The notes below the pieces were generated by a model that was given only the letters and a program-made list of their open reading frames with translations, ran no database searches and had not been told where the DNA came from. Shown in pieces: positions 2,505 through 52,557 of a stretch of 64,000 nt of DNA. Origin of the DNA: an uncultured Gammaproteobacteria bacterium (GTDB lineage: Bacteria; Patescibacteriota; Patescibacteriia; UBA1558; UBA10009). The stretch is taken from the NCBI GenBank assembly GCA_964588165.1, contig CAZPMS010000006.1, positions 3,425-67,424 of the forward strand. The letters run 5' to 3'. Made by a program: the position numbers and the translations under genes. Numbering within the stretch: position 1 is the first letter of the stretch; every line of letters begins with the position of its first letter.

Positions 2505-5075
2505 TTACTTATTAGCAGTGTCCTGCGAAAGCTTCATCCTTTCCAAAATCTCCTGTTCTACAATATTCCTGTCTCGGCCGTACTTTAAGCGCGAAGCTTC
2601 TTTAACTTTAAAAACGATTGATTTATCACCAGGCTTTGGCGGATAAGTTTTAATGTTAAAAGCCGGCACGTTCTGGTTATCTATTAATAATTTTAGATAG
2701 GCGTTAAACTTAGGAATATTTATTAAATCATATTCATTAAAAACAGGGTTAAACTGTTTAGCCACTAGTTCGGCATCATCCGGGCCTATCCTAAAGGAAG
2801 CCATTGTACCTACATTGCCAAAAACAGAATCCCTGATAGAAGTATCGTTGCCTTTTACCAGCTGGCCCACATATTGGTGCGCCACAGTTAAACTTAATTT
2901 ATATTTTCTGGCTTCTGATAAAATTATAGAAATGCTTTCGGTAATGAAATTTTGGAACTCATCTATATATAAATAATAATCGTGCCGCTTTTCTTCTGGC
3001 AATTCTACTCTGGAGAGGGCGGATATTAGAATCTTGCCAACAACTACCATGCCCAATAAATTTGCGGACATATCACCAATGGTCCCTTTGGCCAGTTTAA
3101 TTAGCAAAATCTTTTTCTTGTCCATTACTTCTCTAAAATTAAAAGAACTTTTTTGCTGGGCAATAATCGGCCTTAATAAATCGCTGGAGACAAATGGAGT
3201 TAATTTACTGGTGATATAAGGAACCATATTAGCCAATGATGCTTCGCCGCCGGCTTTTTCTGCCTCTTTCTCCCAAAAATCCCTTACCACCGGATTTACA
3301 CATTTAGAAAGCTTGTATCTCCTAAAATTAGGGTCGGCTAAAACCTTGGGTACTTCCAATAAAGTTGAGCCGGACACAGGATCTTCCATCATTAGCAGCA
3401 TGGCATTACGCATATACTGTTCAAACATTGGGCCACCGGTGGCTTTAAGGTCGTAGAGCTTATCAAAAATATTTATCATTTCGTTTATCACGAAAGTTTT
3501 TTGTTCCGGCGTGCTAAACTCCAGCATATTAAGCCCGATAGGCCTCTTGGTATCAGCTGGATCAAACAAAATTACATCGTCTACTCTGCCTTCGGGGATA
3601 TGCTCCATTACTGTTTCTATTAAATCTCCGTGGGGATCTATAACGCAAACGCCTTGGTTATTTTTAATGTCTTGGATTATCATGTTGGACATAAAAACAG
3701 ATTTACCGGTACCGGACTTGCCAATTATATACATATGCCTTAAGCGGTCCGAACTTTTAATTCTTATTGGCGCTTTTATTCCCCGATATAAATTCTCTCC
3801 CAAAATAAGGCCCTCTTTGGGTAAATTAAGAGGCGGCGTGGCCTTCCTGGCTTCTAACCAATTTATATTAGGTGTTTCTGAAGAAGGCAAAGGCAAGTGC
3901 CATAGGCTGGCCATTTCTTCAGCATTTAAAATTAAACTTTTTTTTGGAATAAAACTTCTATGGATAAAATTGGAGATCAATTTGGGAACTTTAATAAATT
4001 TTGCTTTTTTAAATCCATTGCCATATTCATAAATATTAAACTGAGAAAAAGCATTAATAATATTTTCTAAATAAGCCTCGGCCTTTTGCCTGTTTGGAGC
4101 AGAAACCACTACCCTTATGTTTGCTTCCATGCCTGCCTTGCTGGTTTTTTCTTCAATACCTTTTACCACCTCTGCTTCCATGGGAGAAAGCATTCTTCTT
4201 TCATCTGCTTCTTCTATATTTTTAGAAGCATCCTTTTTAGTTTTAAAAAAGCTTAAAGTGCCAACCACAGCGTTGGTTAGCTTATCAAAAATATTGCCTA
4301 AGCCTGCTTTCCTTAAAGCTACACTTAATTTTTTACCCTGTTGCATTTCTCTTGCTACAATTACTCCTTTGCGATGCCAGCTTTTATAAGCAGACCTAGC
4401 CACCAGCTGAATGGCTGCTCCTGATTCTTCACCTATTTTTGAAAAAGCATTGGTTAAAGCATTTAACGGATCGCTATCAGACTTTTTGTAAGTTTTAATT
4501 GGAAAAATAAAATCTCTGCCAAACTTTAAATAACTGCCAACCACCACGCCCTGGGCAGAAAAAATATTATAGTCTTCTAACTCCTCTATCTGTGCAAAAG
4601 GGTAAGAAGCATGGATTTGCTGTTCTAGGGTATCTTTTAAATAATCAGGAATGGCTACATAAAAATTAATCTTGCCATTTTGGGTTACGATTTCTACAGA
4701 AAAATGGTCTGATCTGCCAAAGATCCAGCTCTTTGTCCCTCTCTGGGCTTTAAGGCCGCCTAAAACAGAAAAAATGTTTTCCGCTACACCTATTTGTTCT
4801 TGGATTGTTTGGGGGGAATCATCGGCACCTTCTTTTTTTAAATTTTCTTTAGGCACGGTAATGAGCAAAATTTTCATTTTTAAAGCAGAAGGAACCTTAT
4901 TGCTTTTGGCTAAAAAACTTCTAACAATTAAAAAGGCGGTTATTAAAACCACCAACAAGATAAATATTAAAATAAAAGCTAAAAACCAAGTATTTTCCAA
5001 AAGGGCATTAGCCTGGGCAGTAAAAGGCGAATTTGACTCTATAACTATTTGCAAGGCAAACAAAGTTAAATACAT
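2505..5075 (-). CDS. VirD4/TraG-family (type IV coupling protein-like) P-loop NTPase with N-terminal membrane anchor
   Basis: 856 aa. N-terminal TM segments, Walker A IGKSGTGKS, Walker B-like YYLYIDEFQNF, then AHQYVGQL. Assignment by motif only. Confidence 0.65.
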   Translation of the reverse strand: MYLTLFALQIVIESNSPFTAQANALLENTWFLAFILIFILLVVLITAFLIVRSFLAKSNKVPSALKMKILLITVPKENLKKEGADDSPQTIQEQIGVAENIFSVLGGLKAQRGTKSWIFGRSDHFSVEIVTQNGKINFYVAIPDYLKDTLEQQIHASYPFAQIEELEDYNIFSAQGVVVGSYLKFGRDFIFPIKTYKKSDSDPLNALTNAFSKIGEESGAAIQLVARSAYKSWHRKGVIVAREMQQGKKLSVALRKAGLGNIFDKLTNAVVGTLSFFKTKKDASKNIEEADERRMLSPMEAEVVKGIEEKTSKAGMEANIRVVVSAPNRQKAEAYLENIINAFSQFNIYEYGNGFKKAKFIKVPKLISNFIHRSFIPKKSLILNAEEMASLWHLPLPSSETPNINWLEARKATPPLNLPKEGLILGENLYRGIKAPIRIKSSDRLRHMYIIGKSGTGKSVFMSNMIIQDIKNNQGVCVIDPHGDLIETVMEHIPEGRVDDVILFDPADTKRPIGLNMLEFSTPEQKTFVINEMINIFDKLYDLKATGGPMFEQYMRNAMLLMMEDPVSGSTLLEVPKVLADPNFRRYKLSKCVNPVVRDFWEKEAEKAGGEASLANMVPYITSKLTPFVSSDLLRPIIAQQKSSFNFREVMDKKKILLIKLAKGTIGDMSANLLGMVVVGKILISALSRVELPEEKRHDYYLYIDEFQNFITESISIILSEARKYKLSLTVAHQYVGQLVKGNDTSIRDSVFGNVGTMASFRIGPDDAELVAKQFNPVFNEYDLINIPKFNAYLKLLIDNQNVPAFNIKTYPPKPGDKSIVFKVKEASRLKYGRDRNIVEQEILERMKLSQDTANK

Positions 5076-8311: not shown

Positions 8312-8359
8312 TTTAAAAAAACTTAAAAATAAAAAATAGTAGATAGATATCCGCGGACT

Positions 8360-8409
8360 ATCAGTGATTAATCAGTGATCGTTCCGCGAATATCAGTGAA
8401 TTATCTATG
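8360..8409 (+). repeat. phased heptamer array B (ATCAGTG x3, ATCTATG)
   Basis: Heptamers start at 8360, 8371, 8392 and 8403 (spacing 11, 21, 11). The array ends 7 nt before TTGACA at 8416. Confidence 0.7.
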
Positions 8410-8415
8410 AAAAAC

Positions 8416-8444
8416 TTGACAAAATCAATAAATTATGCTAAATT
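8416..8444 (+). promoter_or_regulatory. sigma70-type promoter of islet ORF 3
   Basis: TTGACA (8416-8421), N17, TAAATT (8439-8444). The leader has the palindrome AATGTTgttgAACATT (8456-8471), ACATAGACAAAAC, and SD AAAGGAG. Confidence 0.65.
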
Positions 8445-8515
8445 ACAATGTTAAAAATGTTGTTGAACATTGACAAAAAAACGCTAAACATAGACAAAAC
8501 AAAGGAGTACTGAAA

Positions 8516-10882
8516 ATGGCTACCACCGCAAAAGAAGTAGCTGGCGCAGCCACTGCTACCTCAGCTGCCGCAGCCAGAGAACAATTCCGTTTGGAACTGT
8601 GGCAAGTTTTCCGCGACATTCTTATCGGCAAAGACAAGTGGGTTGATGAAGTTGCCAGAACCCATTACGAAAACCAATTCAAGGAACAGTTTTCGGAGAA
8701 ATACGACCTACTTCTGAAAATGCTTCATCCCGACAACCTAAGTACTACCGACCAGCATTGCCTGGATATGGTGGCCTTGGAACATGCCAAGTTGGCCGAT
8801 AAATCTTTGCACGAAAAGGATACGGCTAAGCTCATACCAGGGATGTTTAAAATCTTCTGCGACAAGTTGGAAGAAGTTATTGACTTGGCTACCGAAGGTG
8901 ATGAGTTTGACGTCATCAAAGCGCACACACTGCTCCGGGACAAACGCTGGATCGGTCAGGGCTTCTGGGCTCAAAGGCTAAAGGAAAACATGGGTGAAAT
9001 TCTCAAGCTGGGTTGGATTTCTGAAGGCCTGAGAAGATTTATCCAATCTCCTATCGTTCATGACTTCATGGAAGGAGCTGAACAGCCTTCCATCGATTTC
9101 TTTGAATGGGCCCAGCAGCATTACAACCTCGCAGCCAAAATACGCAGCGGAGCACCCAGTAATCGCCGTTACAGCAACAACCCCTTCAAAAACTTTTTTG
9201 TAGGGCTGCAGTTGATGATTGGTGTTGCTTGGAACTATCTGATGGTAGGCTTGGGCAAGGTGAACAAGTTAAGGCAACAGAATTGGCACAGGATTGGCAA
9301 AAGGACCTTCTGGACAACCATAATTGTTCTGGGTGTGGTCATTGCTTTCCTGATACTGCTGGGATTAGGAATCCACAACAGCTACTTCAAAAGTACCAAC
9401 TACCTTTGGCTTATTGCGACTGCTGGAATTCTACTGTTCATCATCTTTGCTACACTCAAGATTATTGAGGCTGCACTGGGATTGGCCATCTTCACGGTAC
9501 GCTTGGCTTTTGCTGTTATAGCTAGGCCGTCCCTCTGGACCGTTGAACAAGGCGGTAAGTTTATCTGGCAAGTTGGTACTTGGCCAATTGAATTTGGCTT
9601 TGACGCTATAACCGACACCTTTAAGGGGCTATTAATGTTCTTAGGGGTTGATATTGAGGACATTGAACGGTTAAGCGACAGAAAATTCGAACTGACTGAA
9701 GCTCAGAAATCTGCTTGGGGAGATTTAAGTAAACGAACAGAAGACTTGATGAAAGGCGCCCGCCAAACCAGTATTTTCATCACTGTCGGCTTCAAGTATT
9801 TTGCGGCGCTGATAACTTCCACTTCTTTCCTGATCTTGGCCAAATGGCAGTTTTCTGGCGTAGACTCCAGTGCGGTTTTGAACAATCCGGTTTTTGCTCT
9901 GCTGATTCTTTTCCTGCTGGGCTCGCTTTTCACCCATTTTGGAATCCGTGAATATCAGGCAAGAATTGCTAAAGCTACCGGCTTAGATGACAAAAAGCGC
10001 TCCTGGCGAACAGTTAACCGGATTGCTTTTGCTTGCCTTGTTCTGCTGATTCTGGCTGAATGGCGATTTGAAACCGTCACTAACGTCTGGTACTACAATG
10101 CCAGGCAATCAGCAGCCATAACCGAACACGCAAACCAAGAAAGGAGGCTTAAAACTGCGATTTGGGAAAAAAATCGCAGTGCAACAATTCATCGTGGAGC
10201 AACTGTATTTTTGGCAGAAACCGATACAGAAAACGATGATGAGTCTTACATCGTCATAACCGACTCAACTTTCAGCCGGCCAAATCCGAATGTGGTTTAT
10301 GTGGTAAAACCTGCCCTTGAGCAAAACGGCCAGGTATTTACTATCTACAACCCCATTGACCAAAATGGCATCAGGCAAGCAAGCCTGCAATACGCTGTTT
10401 TGGCTCAATATCTGGATCAGGTTACTCCAAACGAGGCAGCCCGCTTGCTGGCTACCAAAACTGAGGCAAAGCCATCATTAATGCCTAGCTCCATTACTTA
10501 CAATCCGAGCAAAGGCATGGCAGTGCTTGGGTATGTTAACACCGATGATGTTCTTTATCTGGATCCTGTCCAACTGTCACTACTTAGCTGTCCTGAAGAA
10601 AGCGATATTGGACTGAAAGGTACCCATGGTACACCGCGTAGCCGCCATGAAGATTGGCCTGAAGAATTCGTTGATCAGCGCATGCGGCTTGGCGCCCTGT
10701 TGGTGAAATTACCAGCTTATGGTTGGCAACCTTTGTACCAAGCCGAGTCATTCAACATCCGTGGCAGCGGAACAGCCATGGTCTGCGTTAATACGCGGCG
10801 TGGGCTTTTTGGCCTTAACGAAGGAGGAATGGTAGATATTGCTATCAGGCTGGAAACCTATGCCGAAATGGCACAACGTTAA
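8516..10882 (+). CDS. hypothetical polytopic membrane protein, 788 aa (GC-rich islet ORF 3)
   Basis: Long uninterrupted ORF at roughly 45-60% G+C in sampled stretches. Soluble N-terminal ~270 aa, ~8 hydrophobic helices, soluble C-terminal ~250 aa. No family recognised. Confidence 0.65.
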   Translation: MATTAKEVAGAATATSAAAAREQFRLELWQVFRDILIGKDKWVDEVARTHYENQFKEQFSEKYDLLLKMLHPDNLSTTDQHCLDMVALEHAKLADKSLHEKDTAKLIPGMFKIFCDKLEEVIDLATEGDEFDVIKAHTLLRDKRWIGQGFWAQRLKENMGEILKLGWISEGLRRFIQSPIVHDFMEGAEQPSIDFFEWAQQHYNLAAKIRSGAPSNRRYSNNPFKNFFVGLQLMIGVAWNYLMVGLGKVNKLRQQNWHRIGKRTFWTTIIVLGVVIAFLILLGLGIHNSYFKSTNYLWLIATAGILLFIIFATLKIIEAALGLAIFTVRLAFAVIARPSLWTVEQGGKFIWQVGTWPIEFGFDAITDTFKGLLMFLGVDIEDIERLSDRKFELTEAQKSAWGDLSKRTEDLMKGARQTSIFITVGFKYFAALITSTSFLILAKWQFSGVDSSAVLNNPVFALLILFLLGSLFTHFGIREYQARIAKATGLDDKKRSWRTVNRIAFACLVLLILAEWRFETVTNVWYYNARQSAAITEHANQERRLKTAIWEKNRSATIHRGATVFLAETDTENDDESYIVITDSTFSRPNPNVVYVVKPALEQNGQVFTIYNPIDQNGIRQASLQYAVLAQYLDQVTPNEAARLLATKTEAKPSLMPSSITYNPSKGMAVLGYVNTDDVLYLDPVQLSLLSCPEESDIGLKGTHGTPRSRHEDWPEEFVDQRMRLGALLVKLPAYGWQPLYQAESFNIRGSGTAMVCVNTRRGLFGLNEGGMVDIAIRLETYAEMAQR

Positions 10883-25192: not shown

Positions 25193-25222
25193 CCAGCCAA
25201 AGGCTGGTGAGCCTACGGCTCA
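25193..25222 (-). repeat. GC-rich twin-hairpin element, copy outside a tRNA
   Basis: Plus strand CCAGCCAAAGGCTGG + TGAGCCTACGGCTCA. The first hairpin is identical to that at 34325-34339. ATCTAG occurs on both sides. Confidence 0.7.
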
Positions 25223-32034: not shown

Positions 32035-32132
32035 TGGCAGGGATTTGCCCCGCTTTTCGTGAAAGGCGGGATAAAAACCCAGACCAACGGTTTTGGACCC
32101 AGCCCTTCGCGAAGGGCTGGGTGGAGACCCTC
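32035..32132 (-). pseudogene. ghost of tRNA-Trp 3' half carrying two GC hairpin insertions
   Basis: Minus strand GAGGGTCTCCA[CCCAGCCCTTCGCGAAGGGCTGGG]TCCAAAACCGTTGGTCTGGGTT[..CCCGCCTTTCACGAAAAGCGGGG]CAAATCCCTGCCA aligns to the tRNA-Trp anticodon stem through CCA. The 3' acceptor strand is mostly deleted. Confidence 0.75.
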
Positions 32133-32148
32133 AAAAATCATATTATTT

Positions 32149-32223
32149 TGGCAGGAGCGCTAGGATTTGAACCCAGACCAACGGTTTTGGAGACCGTCAT
32201 GCTACCATTGACACCACGCTCCC
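32149..32223 (-). tRNA. tRNA-Trp (anticodon CCA)
   Basis: 75 nt cloverleaf GGGAGCG..ACGGT-CTCCAAA-ACCGT..CTGGG-TTCAAAT-CCTAG-CGCTCCT-G-CCA. CCA is encoded. Confidence 0.9.
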
Positions 32224-32258
32224 ATCAAAAAAATATGATTATCTTAAATTTAATCTCT

Positions 32259-32483
32259 TTAAAAGACCATGATAAGCGATCCATATTGTTTTAGTTTTCT
32301 TTCCCTCACTTTGGCATCTATTTCTTTCTGATACGCTTCATAATAAAACAATTTGGGATTTTTCATCCGTTTAGTAGTATACACTTTTCCACTTTTATGT
32401 TCAGACAATCGTCTATTTAGGTTATTAGTATACCCTATGTATATTTTCCCATGATCATCAAGTTGTAAATAAACATAATACAT
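32259..32483 (-). CDS. small GIY-YIG nuclease-family protein (COG2827-like)
   Basis: 74 aa. YVYLQ..GKIYIGYTNNLNRRLSEH..YYE. Ends 36 nt upstream of tRNA-Trp on the same strand. Confidence 0.8.
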   Translation of the reverse strand: MYYVYLQLDDHGKIYIGYTNNLNRRLSEHKSGKVYTTKRMKNPKLFYYEAYQKEIDAKVRERKLKQYGSLIMVF

Positions 32484-33308: not shown

Positions 33309-33415
33309 CCTACAGTTTATGCCGCCTTTAGGAGGTGGCAAAACTGTTGCTCCCTGCCCCGTTTACTCCAAACAAATGTGAGGAGTTATGCGGGGTACCA
33401 TTGAGCTACAACGGC
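33309..33415 (-). pseudogene. ghost tRNA-Thr(UGU), 5' two-thirds, different acceptor (GCCGTTG), two hairpin insertions
   Basis: GCCGTTGTAGCTCAATGGT[43-44 nt hairpin 33353-33396]GAGCAACAGTTTT[GCCACCTCCTAAAGGCGGC 33321-33339]ATAAACTGTAGG. T-arm and 3' acceptor are missing. Confidence 0.8.
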
Positions 33416-33553: not shown

Positions 33554-33638
33554 TGGTGGGCCGGGCAGGATTCGAACCTGCGAAGGCAGAGCCAACAGAT
33601 TTACAGTCTGTCCCGTTTGACCGCTTCGGTACCGACCC
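33554..33638 (-). tRNA. tRNA-Tyr (anticodon GUA), class II with long variable arm
   Basis: 85 nt GGGTCGG..ACAGA-CTGTAAA-TCTGT-TGGCTCTGCCTTC-GCAGG-TTCGAAT-CCTGC-CCGGCCC-A-CCA. Confidence 0.9.
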
Positions 33639-33882
33639 ACAAATTTTTAACTAGCTCCTTAAAGGCTCTTCCTCCTTTATAAGATTTTATCAGAAGCTCT
33701 CTTTTATATGCATCTTGTTTAGAAAAATATCTTTCCGAATAAACCAACTTCCAAGGGACACCTGATTTTGTTGATTTTACAAAACCTTTATTATGTCTAG
33801 CTAAACGATTAAATAAATTCTTACAATGACCTGTATAGTATCTATCTAAAGATTTACTATGCAATATATAAACTATAAACAT
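33601..33882 (-). CDS. small GIY-YIG nuclease-family protein whose 3' end is encoded by tRNA-Tyr
   Basis: IVYILHS..RYYTGHCKNLFNRLARH. ATG at 33882 (the track uses GTG at 33885). The last 38 nt are tRNA-Tyr positions 1-38, and the stop TAA is the GUAAA of the anticodon loop. Confidence 0.8.
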   Translation of the reverse strand: MFIVYILHSKSLDRYYTGHCKNLFNRLARHNKGFVKSTKSGVPWKLVYSERYFSKQDAYKRELLIKSYKGGRAFKELVKNLWVGTEAVKRDRL

Positions 33883-33896
33883 CACTTTTCATTTAA

Positions 33897-33995
33897 GATT
33901 TATGCCCGCCTATGGCGGCACCCCGCCGTAGGCGGTGGCAGTCTGTCCCGTTTATCCCGCCAAAGGCGGCGATTTGACCGCTTCGGTACCGACCC
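33897..33995 (-). pseudogene. ghost tRNA-Tyr 5' half (positions 1-41) with hairpin insertions in the D-loop and anticodon loop
   Basis: GGGTCGGTACCGAAGCGGTCAAA[TCGCCGCCTTTGGCGGGAT, TTT duplicated]AAACGGGACAGACTG[36-nt double hairpin 33903-33938]TAAATCT, then diverges into the GIY-YIG gene. Confidence 0.8.
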
Positions 33996-34086
33996 GATGG
34001 AGCCGTTGTGCGGACTCGAACCACAAACCCCTTCCTTACCCCCGCAAGATTTCGTTTCACTCAATCTGCGGGGCAAGCATGGAAGT

Positions 34087-34202
<116 letters not shown>

Positions 34203-34318
34203 AAGTGCTCCCTGCCCCGCTTACTCCGAACAAAAGTAGGAGTTATGCGGGGTACCAACTGAGCTACAACGGCAATAATGTTTTTTTAAAAAAACATATT
34301 CTTATGGCATAACTTCTT

Positions 34319-34371
34319 TCTACCCCAGCCAAAGGCTGGTCCGCCTCTGACGGAAACTGAGCTATGTCGGC
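34319..34371 (-). pseudogene. third tRNA-Thr-like 5' fragment (acceptor GCCGACA) with a twin hairpin in the D-loop
   Basis: GCCGACATAGCTCAGTT[TCCGTCAGAGGCGGA][CCAGCCTTTGGCTGG]GGTAGA, then decays. The perfect palindrome ATGTTTTTTTAAAAAAACAT (34279-34298) lies downstream. Confidence 0.65.
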
Positions 34372-43519: not shown

Positions 43520-43600
43520 GTCATTCCGAGCGAGGCTAAACCCTCGCCTTAACGTTTAAATTATTAAAAAATTGTTTAACGAAGAATTCAGCTTATCATT
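43520..43600. mobile_element. degenerate GTCAT-TIR MITE (copy 3)
   Basis: The left arm GTCATTCCGAGCGAGGCTAAACCCTCGCCTTAACG is clear. The right arm TAACGAAGAATTCAGCTTATCATT is only weakly related. Total length is ~81 bp, like the 83-bp copies. Confidence 0.4.
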
Positions 43601-43923: not shown

Positions 43924-44299
43924 GCCATTCCGAGCTTGTCGAGGAATCCCGTTATTCCGGAAAGACGATTTTTAAATTCTTATTAACTCGCTTTATTAAA
44001 TCCAATTTTTTAAAACGACTCCATTTTTTTAACTGTTTTTCTCTATCAATCGCTTCAATAATACTTTCATAACTTTCAAAATAAACTAATTCATCAACAT
44101 TATATTTTTTAGTAAATCCTTTTAATTTTAATTGATGTTCATCTAATCTTCTAGCTAAATCATTGGTAACTCCTATATAAATCACTGTTCTCCTATGATT
44201 CATTAAAAAATAGACGTAAAATTCTTTTTGTAACACATTTTAAACTTTCCTACCCTGATACATTTATTAACGGGATCTCTCCACCTTGGTCGAGATGAC
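43924..44299 (-). mobile_element. GTCAT-TIR element carrying a GIY-YIG gene (putative autonomous partner of the 83-bp MITEs)
   Basis: Plus-strand left arm GCCATTCCGAGCTTGTCGAGGAATCCCGTTA (43924-43954). The right arm 44268-44299 reverse-complements to GTCATCTCGACCAAGGTGGAGAGATCCCGTTA. The ORF stop TAA lies inside the left arm. Confidence 0.7.
43952..44236 (-). CDS. small GIY-YIG nuclease-family protein (COG2827-like)
   Basis: 94 aa. FYVYFLMN..VIYIGVTNDLARRLDEH..FTKKYNV..LVYFE. Confidence 0.85.
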   Translation of the reverse strand: MLQKEFYVYFLMNHRRTVIYIGVTNDLARRLDEHQLKLKGFTKKYNVDELVYFESYESIIEAIDREKQLKKWSRFKKLDLIKRVNKNLKIVFPE

Positions 44300-48777: not shown

Positions 48778-48954
48778 TGGCTGCCGGGGCTGGATTTTCA
48801 CCCCGCCGTATTGGCTGTGGAGACAGGACTCGAACCTGTAACATTCGCATTAACAGTGCGACGTTCTACCATTGAACTACTCCACAACTAATGTAGATAG
48901 ACGAAAATACTGCCCGCCAAAGGCGGGTCCGCCCTTGGCGGAAACTACCCGGCA
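48778..48954 (-). pseudogene. outer (disrupted) tRNA-Asn-like gene enclosing the intact tRNA-Asn
   Basis: The 5' piece is TGCCGGG-TA-GTT[twin hairpin 48913-48942]CAGTA (48954->48908). The 3' piece is ...CCCGGCA-G-CCA (48809->48778). The acceptor halves TGCCGGG/CCCGGCA are perfectly complementary. The anticodon arm is missing. Confidence 0.7.
48812..48886 (-). tRNA. tRNA-Asn (anticodon GUU)
   Basis: 75 nt TGTGGAG-TA-GTTC-AATGGTA-GAAC-G-TCGCA-CTGTTAA-TGCGA-ATGTT-ACAGG-TTCGAGT-CCTGT-CTCCACA-G-CCA. A U1-A72 pair also occurs in E. coli tRNA-Asn. Confidence 0.9.
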
Positions 48955-48977: not shown

Positions 48978-49003
48978 ATAAAAAACCCGCCGAACTTGGC
49001 GGG
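48978..49003 (-). terminator. Rho-independent terminator downstream of the GerMN lipoprotein gene
   Basis: Minus strand CCCGCCAAGTTCGGCGGG followed by TTTTTTAT. Confidence 0.7.
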
Positions 49004-52381: not shown

Positions 52382-52557
52382 CGAGGATAAATTCCTCGCC
52401 TGCGGAATATTATATTTATTAGCGAGGCTAAACCCTCGCCTGAACGATCTACTATCCCCAAAGTTGAGCAGAGGGTTTAGCCTCTGCATAAAATCCGTAG
52501 ACTATAAATGTAATAAATTACTTAACAAAATACCGTAACAGAGGAATTTATCCTCTG
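52382..52557. repeat. four-hairpin composite repeat filling the purD-purN spacer
   Basis: H1 CGAGGATAAATTCCTCG (52382), H2 GCGAGGCTAAACCCTCGC (52422), H3 GCAGAGGGTTTAGCCTCTGC (52468), H4 CAGAGGAATTTATCCTCTG (52539). H3 resembles rc(H2) and H4 resembles rc(H1). H2 plus its flank equals the arm at 43527-43554. Confidence 0.65.

Follow-up and report, generated by a model that had tools for sequence, protein, structure and literature searches.

A 30-nucleotide twin-hairpin element in tRNA fragments, spacers and protein genes of Patescibacteria and other bacterial phyla

Why is the same pair of short GC-rich hairpins present within the remains of different tRNA genes and again in a spacer between two protein genes? 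The question is raised by a 64,000-nucleotide stretch of contig CAZPMS010000006.1 (hereafter, the window), the source organism of which is a Patescibacterium related to Candidatus (Ca.) Komeilibacteria. A first-pass annotation of the window had recorded a 30-nt twin-hairpin element at three places, and in our study all three copies were confirmed with exactly the letters and coordinates that had been quoted (Table 1). The element was found to recur widely in public genomes and has apparently not been described before. It is probably a very small non-autonomous insertion element, the copies of which are dispersed over bacterial chromosomes in Patescibacteria and in several phyla besides.

Each of the three copies, folded as single-stranded DNA, formed two hairpins of 6 bp with loops of 3 nt (z = -2.8 to -4.2). 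The fold of copy 1 reached -13.1 kcal/mol (z = -4.1), and the second stem of copy 2 contained a single C/A mismatch. A covariance model (R1), which was built from 41 distinct copies and run on the whole window with filters off, returned exactly three full copies (48.3-51.2 bits, E about 1e-11). Below these only half-elements were found, and the next independent match was a half-element of 16.5 bits at 33957-33969. The core CCGCCNNNGGCGG, with at most one mismatch, was found seven times in the window, where shuffled sequence would give 0.29. Flanking sequence was 22-40% identical between the copies and the likeness ended at the borders of the element; the flanks are thus unrelated, and the suggestion that the copies were simply inherited from one duplicated segment was ruled out. 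Copies 2 and 3 were present unchanged in L127, an independently made assembly from the same organism with 99.96% identity (L-numbers label fetched stretches of public genomes).

The species genomes of GTDB were scanned with the 21-base pattern CCMGCCAAAGGCKGGTSMGCC, and more than 118 stretches were matched, where chance alone would give roughly 4 to 10 (our own estimate, from the degeneracy of the pattern). The view that this is a conserved, recurring element was thereby borne out. The family counts given below (124 distinct copies, or 115, 110 or 108 in subsets) are counts among the matches listed, and about 14 of the 124 matches look like chance or disrupted copies. Most of the hosts were Patescibacteria of many classes. 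The other hosts were Omnitrophota and Elusimicrobiota (single-cell genomes included in this group), Planctomycetia, Brocadiaceae, Melainabacteria, Chloroflexota, a metagenome-assembled genome (MAG) of Nodularia (L048), and Cytophagales, which included the cultured isolate Marivirga aurantiaca. The taxon labels of some MAGs may be wrong; those of the isolate, the single-cell genomes and the megabase contigs are sound. Among the further variants found by the model R1, TCCGCC..GGCGGA served as hairpin 1, and one copy in L050 was richer in AT. In L009 as many as six copies were found within 8 kb. In Cytophagales, Marivirga and Bacteroidota (L007, L046, L055, L103, L112, L013) the element was present inside a larger repeat of about 100 nt, ...GGTCGACAAAAAGGCGGGGAGCGCGCTGAATTGTAGCGTGGAAG[element]ACATCTTTTTGTC..., for which no Rfam match was obtained.

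The consensus was CC[C/A]GCCAAAGGC[G/T]GG-T[C/G][C/A]GCC-TNN-GGC[G/T][G/C]A. The nine bases which the search pattern leaves open completed hairpin 2 perfectly in 96 of the 124 copies and at five of six positions in 14 more; the remaining, non-pairing matches were mostly chance matches in GC-rich genomes or copies in which another hairpin was nested in the loop of hairpin 2. Four compensated variants of hairpin 2 were found, namely TCCGCC/GGCGGA, TCAGCC/GGCTGA, TGCGCC/GGCGCA, and TGAGCC/GGCTCA. The covariation score was 0.193 as against 0.047 in shuffles; it was reached by none of 500 shuffles and exceeded all slid controls. The compensatory stem changes noticed between the window copies are thus real, and the covariation of the stems places the hairpins under selection. 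The further claim, that selection acts on structure rather than on sequence, stands only in its first half: the stems covary, but the sequence is equally conserved, and the same 30-mer is found across phyla. Moreover, covariation in a palindrome cannot separate selection at the DNA level from selection at the RNA level. Searches of the window and of 18 loci with Rfam brought only tRNAs above threshold, the element, the tRNA fragments and the Cytophagales composite being unmatched. The element gave no match in 2.9 million viral contigs and no full match in 72,556 plasmids. In the literature searched we found no paper which prints its sequences or the peptides encoded by it, or which describes it in Patescibacteria; the papers on group I introns of tRNA genes and on rRNA insertions in Patescibacteria do not describe it.

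Two of the window copies interrupt 5' fragments of tRNA genes (hereafter, ghosts). Copy 2 is placed between positions 17 and 18 of a Thr fragment, where it interrupts GCCGACATAGCTCAGTT^GGTAGA (^ marks the junction), and of 23 flanking bases 22 agree with tRNA-Thr positions 1-23, a score that none of 2000 shuffles reached. Copy 1 interrupts TGCCGGGTAGTT^CAGTA in a short Asn-like fragment, 27 nt upstream of an intact minus-strand tRNA-Asn gene. This fragment aligns weakly to tRNA-Asn, over 8 nt (p about 0.04). Its acceptor strand, TGCCGGG, is complementary to the CCCGGCA-G-CCA that is found just downstream of the intact gene, and the Asn assignment of 48908-48954 is suggested by this complementarity with 48778-48807 rather than by the alignment. 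The pieces 48778-48807 and 48943-48954 bracket the intact tRNA-Asn gene, and the TGCCGGG/CCCGGCA pairing across them places that gene inside an older tRNA gene.

The two insertions had been assigned to the same position of the D-loop. Both were found to follow AGTT; the position within the tRNA was not the same, being the D-loop (17^18) for copy 2 and the D-stem (12^13) for copy 1. Copies 1 and 2 thus share the sequence context AGTT^ and have no common structural position. The recurrence after AGTT probably reflects a short flank preference (Y-N^A-A) and not a structural position in the tRNA. AGTT is present in tRNA D-arms, and in a compact genome there are few sites other than dead fragments at which an insertion would be without cost.

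Copy 3 was the one recorded as standing outside tRNAs, and this was upheld. It is present in a 60-nt spacer between an EamA gene and a glycosyl-hydrolase-like gene, 6 nt past the EamA stop codon, and no tRNA remnant was detected around 25193-25222 by a tRNA hidden Markov model (HMM); by eye, its flanks TAGCGAGTA^GGTTGTATC show a weak resemblance to a D-arm. The corresponding spacer is only 5 nt long in L128, a Ca. Komeilibacteria genome of which the EamA is 61% identical to that of the window, and 3 nt in L131. Copy 3 is a lineage-specific gain in an intergenic spacer.

A tie between the element and tRNA D-loops did not survive the survey of the family. About 10% of the 115 copies examined interrupt recognisable tRNA fragments; about 90% are elsewhere, and about half are in frame within open reading frames (ORFs). 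The tRNA hosts of the element were truncated fragments. An intron of tRNA, whether archaeal (bulge-helix-bulge) or bacterial (group I), was rejected, as excision restored an intact tRNA at none of the 115 sites (ARAGORN, none spanning the junction). A group I tRNA intron was rejected likewise, the insert being only 30 nt long and the group I models of Rfam giving no match at gathering or E-value thresholds. In L037 (6898-7150) a tandem array with a period of 66 nt was observed, each unit consisting of the 3' part of a tRNA (TGGCGGTGGGAGCAGGATTC^GAACC) whose T-loop bears the twin hairpin. This was the sole regular array; its spacers are identical and are tRNA 3' fragments, and a CRISPR repeat was therefore rejected.

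The flanks show how the element enters DNA. Where canonical tRNA sequence was present on both sides, in D- and T-loops, the insert was exactly 30 nt and nothing was duplicated. Among the 124 copies the -2 position was T or C in 105 and the -1 position was A in only 5, whereas A was found at +1 in 72 and at +2 in 98 (p = 9e-33). The insertion site is thus between Y-N and A-A or, on the opposite strand, directly after TT, often after AGTT or TTTT; AACT, the reverse complement of AGTT, was common as the right flank. The element was found in either orientation. Flanking stems of at least 8 bp were found in 3 of 108 copies (0.4 expected), and a general preference for the tips of larger hairpins was rejected, this being a minor subset and not the rule.

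All six frames of the element are free of stop codons and its length is a multiple of three, so that the element survives in protein genes when the frame is rich in Pro, Ala, Gly, or Ser. Sixty-two of 115 copies were found within ORFs of at least 150 aa. The encoded peptides were PAKGGSASGG (25 copies), P/Q-PKAGPPLAE (15), SA-K/R-GGPAFGG (10), and PPEADPPLAG (8). The two Arg/Trp frames were used by only 4 of the 62 copies (p = 5e-7), and this near absence indicates that the copies in ORFs are translated and filtered by selection. In RecG an insert of ten residues was found at one codon (LHxxM^K) in four distant lineages of Patescibacteria (L025, L058, L059, L096), whereas the RecG of L033, L037, and L115 was devoid of it, with the empty sites tta^aag, atg^aaa, and tta^aaa. 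The RecG site is either a strong insertion hotspot or the place of an old insert in which no nucleotide has been allowed to change. Identical 30-mers were also found in pairs of homologous genes the flanks of which have diverged (L003/L099 and L080/L110).

The presence of both orientations, the lack of a U-tract, the copies in coding sequence, and the homologous sites that bear a copy in some lineages but not in others point to an insertion element rather than to an RNA acting in place. Such an element would be moved by a trans-acting nuclease or transposase that recognises the paired hairpins. As the sites show, the 30-mer enters DNA as an exact 30-nt unit, mostly without target-site duplication, between Y-N and A-A, and compensatory change preserves the hairpins. 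The ghosts of the window are probably left-overs, formed when incoming cassettes (a GIY-YIG gene with a tRNA, or a tRNA flanked by inverted repeats) replaced native tRNA genes, and neutral ghosts bearing AGTT would act as insertion sinks.

Several results weigh against mobility of this kind. No recurrent transposase family was found near the copies when about 3,400 ORFs of the 118 loci (loci, not whole genomes) were clustered; the clusters contained only housekeeping families and a small GIY-YIG family. No orientation bias was found (48 vs. 52 when scored by GC skew and 28 vs. 38 when scored by gene strand), and the lagging-strand signature of single-strand transposition of the IS200/IS605 type is therefore absent; the common orientation of the three window copies, all on the C-rich strand, is not significant with n = 3. 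In the one strain-level contig compared, which was identical, no polymorphism between near-identical strains was seen. An exact empty site with otherwise identical flanks was not found; L120, a relative with the same gene order and about 60% protein identity, stops short of the places where copies 1 and 3 are inserted. So weak a flank motif does not account for hairpins in every ghost of the window, and it leaves the filling of one RecG codon in four lineages unexplained; either structure plays a part in targeting, or the insertions and the formation of ghosts are coupled, or selection has kept old copies constant. The flank signal was also mixed, since 7-bp direct repeats flanked 11 of 110 copies against 0.9 expected, and most copies had none. 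These repeats were often found in short heptamer arrays on both sides (CAAGTTT, AAAAATC, CAAATTC), for example in L010, L031, L072, L085, L092, and L100. They could be a target duplication in one mode of insertion, slippage beside a stable hairpin, or pre-existing microsatellites.

The ghosts themselves are part of a wider pattern. When 34380-32035 and 49000-48770 were read on the minus strand, every intact tRNA was accompanied by fragments of a tRNA of the same identity. With the hairpins removed, the ghosts align to the intact Thr, Tyr, and Trp genes at scores reached by 0 of 2000 shuffles, and the Tyr 5' ghost was identical to the intact tRNA-Tyr at 42 of 43 bases. All ghosts in the window bear insertions of GC hairpins, in or beside the D-, anticodon-, or T-loops; about 10 insertions were found in about 350 nt of ghosts, as against very few in the other 6 kb or so of intergenic DNA. 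The insertion in the D-loop of the Tyr ghost has the core of hairpin 1 and is thus a half-element. The divergent 36-nt twin hairpin in the anticodon loop of the same ghost is located 20 nt upstream of a GIY-YIG start codon.

Other hairpins were present beside these. A hairpin of 38-39 nt (CCCCGCATAACTCC...GGAGTAAGCGGGG, then CAGG) follows GGTA at one and the same D-loop position in two different Thr ghosts (GGT and TGT types); the two D-loop hairpins, at 33357-33395 and 34215-34252, are about 85% identical, and since both ghosts have the acceptor GCCGTTG, a 5' module has been duplicated or converted between the paralogues. In the anticodon loop of tRNA-Trp a palindrome centred on TCGCGA is found with TCCA duplicated (CTCCA[hairpin]TCCAAAA; window 32098-32121). 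The same palindrome was observed in an unrelated Patescibacterium (L066), in the ghosts on both sides of its tRNA-Trp, and it appears to represent a second family of hairpins with a target of its own.

Table 1. Coordinates of the twin-hairpin copies, tRNA ghosts and GIY-YIG open reading frames in the window
Feature	Coordinates	Strand	Details
Twin-hairpin copy 1	48913-48942	+	CCCGCCAAAGGCGGG + TCCGCCCTTGGCGGA; covariance model 50.9 bits
Twin-hairpin copy 2	34325-34354	+	CCAGCCAAAGGCTGG + TCCGCCTCTGACGGA; covariance model 51.2 bits
Twin-hairpin copy 3	25193-25222	+	CCAGCCAAAGGCTGG + TGAGCCTACGGCTCA; covariance model 48.3 bits
Asn-like 5' ghost	48908-48954	-	TGCCGGGTAGTT 48954-48943, copy 1, CAGTA 48912-48908
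Asn-like 3' ghost, decayed	48778-48807	-	End CCCGGCA-G-CCA; just downstream of intact tRNA-Asn 48812-48886
Thr 5' ghost (a)	34316-34371	-	GCCGACATAGCTCAGTT 34371-34355, copy 2, GGTAGAAAG 34324-34316
Nested tRNA: outer native-type tRNA-Thr(GGT) ghost	33998-34273	-	Acceptor GCCGTTG...CAACGGC
Hairpin insertions in outer tRNA-Thr(GGT) ghost	34215-34252 and 34040-34073	-	
Insert splitting the outer Thr ghost			Inverted repeat GCCAATAGCC/GGCTATTGGC around intact tRNA-Thr(GGT) 34104-34179
Tyr 5' ghost	33896-33995	-	tRNA positions 1 to ~40; two hairpin insertions
Single hairpin, D-loop of Tyr 5' ghost	33952-33972	-	Core CCGCCAAAGGCGG; 16.5 bits
Divergent 36-nt twin hairpin (18 + 18 nt), anticodon loop of Tyr 5' ghost	33903-33938	-	Weak covariance-model half matches
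Small GIY-YIG nuclease ORF	33601-33885	-	Between Tyr ghost and intact tRNA-Tyr (33554-33638); Pfam PF01541, E = 7.6e-12
Thr(TGT) 5' ghost	33309-33415	-	39-nt D-loop hairpin 33357-33395; 18-nt anticodon-loop hairpin 33321-33338
Second small GIY-YIG ORF	32259-32483	-	Immediately upstream of intact tRNA-Trp (32149-32223); Pfam PF01541, E = 7.8e-13
Trp 3' ghost	32035-32130	-	24-nt anticodon-loop hairpin 32098-32121 (TCCA duplicated); 28-nt T-loop insertion 32048-32075

The native tRNA genes are overwritten by two kinds of cassettes, of which one contains a GIY-YIG ORF and a complete tRNA and the other a tRNA flanked by inverted repeats. In the second kind a repeat of 10-18 bp was found, and the cassette is inserted in a resident gene of the same identity, which gives a tRNA within a tRNA. 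Both kinds leave 5' and 3' ghosts, and their presence differs between the window and L120. The relative L120 keeps an intact tRNA-Thr(GGT) with the acceptor GCCGTTG/CAACGGC, which is the acceptor of the outer ghost of the window; as this acceptor is native in L120, the working tRNA-Thr(GGT) of the window, with the acceptor GCCGAGA, is a newcomer. In L122, tRNA-Tyr and tRNA-Pro were nested likewise, with inverted repeats around the inner gene. At the Tyr locus of the window the order is 5' ghost up to the anticodon loop, GIY-YIG ORF, and intact tRNA-Tyr, as against a plain tRNA-Tyr in L120. The Trp locus of L120 contains a 5' Trp ghost with a hairpin, followed by a GIY-YIG ORF and a new tRNA-Trp. 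The layout of ghost, GIY-YIG and tRNA was also found in unrelated Patescibacteria for Ala (L113), Pro (L053), and Trp (L066), and in L068 the same upstream part (ghost, hairpin, GIY-YIG) was present on a contig that ends ahead of any tRNA. The cassette sites observed were 33998-34273, 33554-33995, and 32035-32483 in the window, 8340-8540 and 10276-10717 in L120, and 3250-3500 and 4580-4840 in L122.

The GIY-YIG ORF at the Tyr locus has no stop codon of its own and runs 38 nt (33601-33638) into the tRNA-Tyr gene, so that its last residues are encoded by the 5' half of the tRNA. A third small GIY-YIG ORF was observed at 43952-44236, with neither a tRNA nor a GC hairpin adjoining it. Close relatives of the GIY-YIG protein were essentially absent from the viral contigs searched. 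In the literature, no paper was found that combines GIY-YIG, tRNA genes and the candidate phyla radiation (CPR), or that describes the overwriting of tRNA genes by GIY-YIG/tRNA cassettes in Patescibacteria. Free-standing GIY-YIG homing endonucleases occur in tRNA gene clusters, as does SegB of phage T4. SegB is the closest precedent for the cassettes, though not for the 30-mer, being a small GIY-YIG gene which stands beside tRNAs and is inherited together with them. The cassettes of the window differ from it in that the resident tRNA is left behind as a ghost, either split or nested, and in being chromosomal in Patescibacteria.

The hairpins might be mechanistically coupled to these cassettes, which we consider unlikely on balance. 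The small GIY-YIG nuclease could recognise the twin hairpin or cut beside it, and so mobilise solo copies too; the hairpins could be selected in ghosts for destroying the target of the nuclease or for neutralising a harmful tRNA half; or they could be captured during repair of the double-strand break made by the nuclease. Of the eight small GIY-YIG ORFs in the fetched loci, five had a twin hairpin at a distance of at most 200 nt (p = 2e-4). For four tRNAs, namely Ala (L113), Pro (L053), Trp (L066), and Tyr of the window (36-nt variant), a ghost with the twin hairpin after TT was followed at a distance of 14-22 nt by the GIY-YIG start codon and then by an intact tRNA of the same identity. The presence of hairpins in all ghosts of the window, far above the intergenic density, favours the coupling as well. 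However, for about 90% of the copies no tRNA or GIY-YIG gene is close by, and ordinary protein genes contain about half of them. In L053 the 5' halves of the ghost and of the intact tRNA are identical, and a role in target immunity is therefore not obvious; moreover, the element is found within continuous tRNA sequence, away from the cassette junction. The association with GIY-YIG could also stem only from the cassettes making neutral ghosts that contain AGTT. Such sinks are ranked higher than the coupling as an explanation of the saturated ghosts, because about 90% of the copies have no tRNA or GIY-YIG gene nearby.

A bolder proposal joins the two observations. The 30-mer would be the smallest known mobile DNA shared across phyla, moved in trans by the small stand-alone GIY-YIG nucleases found beside tRNA genes, and tRNA genes would be the preferred targets of the 30-mer, with insertion there normally lethal; the cassettes would be replacement modules in a running tRNA conflict of the Patescibacteria, which leaves ghosts riddled with hairpins. 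This proposal is rather improbable in our judgement.

It is more doubtful again that the twin hairpin is a functional structured site, in RNA or DNA, which is kept by selection and has spread by usefulness and not by mobility. Its role could be a signal for processing, stability or termination, or the binding of a conserved host protein, as has been proposed for some REP sequences. The strong covariation of the stems, the conserved loops, the identity of the 30-mer at homologous sites despite diverging flank codons, and its position 14-22 nt upstream of several GIY-YIG start codons would fit such a site. It is found, however, in both orientations relative to genes, without a U-tract and without an Rfam match, and about half of the copies are in frame in ORFs with frame selection, that is, translated. 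The occupancy of homologous positions varies between lineages, and copies in neutral DNA decay, as the ghost copy of L120 shows with its substitutions and a nested insert. An intrinsic terminator was rejected on similar grounds: the sequence after the element is A-rich and contains no T-run, and copies are found inside ORFs and in both orientations. To chance, ordinary terminator hairpins, one duplicated segment or an assembly artefact we give practically no weight, for although short GC-rich hairpins are common as terminators and one adjoins copy 1 at 48986-49003, all three copies reach E about 1e-11 in unrelated flanks without a T-run, an identical copy is present in the independent assembly, and the 30-mer recurs in genomes of isolates, single cells and metagenomes that were produced by many laboratories.

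A mobile 30-mer belongs with the miniature palindromic mobile repeats, and in its behaviour it was closest to repetitive extragenic palindromic (REP) sequences and REPIN, the small dispersed repeats (SDR) of Nostoc, and the Rickettsia palindromic elements (RPE). REP sequences, too, are short (20-40 nt), GC-rich, imperfect palindromes with many copies per genome, often paired and non-autonomous, and an enzyme that binds hairpins (RAYT = TnpA-REP, in Proteobacteria) is believed to mobilise them in trans. REPs are extragenic, whereas 62 of 115 copies of the 30-mer are in ORFs in non-random frames; REPs contain a conserved 5' GTAG, whereas the consensus and the flank tables of the 30-mer are devoid of it. 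REPs are also specific to a species with its own RAYT gene, whereas the 30-mer is the same across phyla and no RAYT-like gene recurred at the 118 loci. RPEs are palindromic selfish repeats which are inserted in frame in protein genes and translated, and in-frame insertion was likewise found for the 30-mer. They are 100-150 bp long and are not known outside Rickettsia; this length and host range do not fit a 30-nt element found across phyla. The IS200/IS605-derived miniature elements (PATEs) resemble it in having a hairpin at each end, and they insert beside a short motif without duplication; most copies of the 30-mer, too, are free of a duplication. PATEs, however, insert strand-specifically, into the lagging-strand template, and the 30-mer showed no such bias. 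They insert 3' of a defined motif of 4-5 nt, as against the weak TT^/^AA preference and the occasional 7-bp repeats described above, and they need cleavage sites outside the hairpins, for which the 30-mer leaves no room.

In form, the closest elements are the double-hairpin elements and GC clusters found in fungal mitochondria. The double-hairpin elements are 26-79 nt long, occur in the AT-rich mitochondrial genomes of Allomyces and yeasts at intergenic, structural-RNA and coding sites, are mobile by an unknown mechanism and are restricted to lineages. Two adjacent GC hairpins and insertion in intergenic, RNA-gene and coding sequence are common to them and to the 30-mer. The likeness is one of form only and does not imply common descent, the 30-mer being found in bacterial chromosomes of several phyla with a fixed 30-nt consensus. 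PMC2800124 and PMC10085805 treat such mitochondrial hairpins, both those of fungi and the repetitive hairpin elements of sponges. The SDRs of Nostocaceae (Elhai et al. 2008, cited in PMC5861425 and PMC3116915) are reported to be dispersed repeats of 21-27 nt with signs of mobility such as nested insertion and insertion at fixed sites, with no known enzyme, and to be confined to Nostocaceae. The comparison of SDRs with the 30-mer is by description only, and one match of the 30-mer was in the Nodularia MAG.

If the element is mobile, a unit of 30 nt is far smaller than the known miniature inverted-repeat transposable elements (MITEs), and its sequence is common to Patescibacteria, Bacteroidota, and Planctomycetota. 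It may then be asked which enzyme or repair route moves so little DNA, and how it crosses phyla without a trace in the viral and plasmid collections searched. Many proteins of uncultured bacteria gain ten residues (PAKGGSASGG or a frame variant) through the element, and tRNA-like sequences are broken by it in ways that escape gene finders. The element is a ready marker of strain-level insertion polymorphism. The tRNA-replacement cassettes would make the turnover of tRNA genes in reduced genomes directly testable.

The window contains 36% G+C, and all five tRNAs and nearly all genes are on the minus strand. The GC skew of the plus strand was negative in every 4-kb bin (-0.06 to -0.20) from 1 to 64000, the plus strand being C-rich. 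The sign of the skew, together with the minus-strand genes from about 11 kb onward, places the whole window on one replichore with a strong gene-strand bias. A further family of intergenic hairpins was observed at 43530-43547 and 52382-52557, namely GCGAGGGTTTAGCCTCGC, present twice, and GCAGAGGCTAAACCCTCTGC, GCAGAGGATAAATTCCTCTG, and GCGAGGAATTTATCCTCG; four members of this family were grouped within one spacer of 200 nt.

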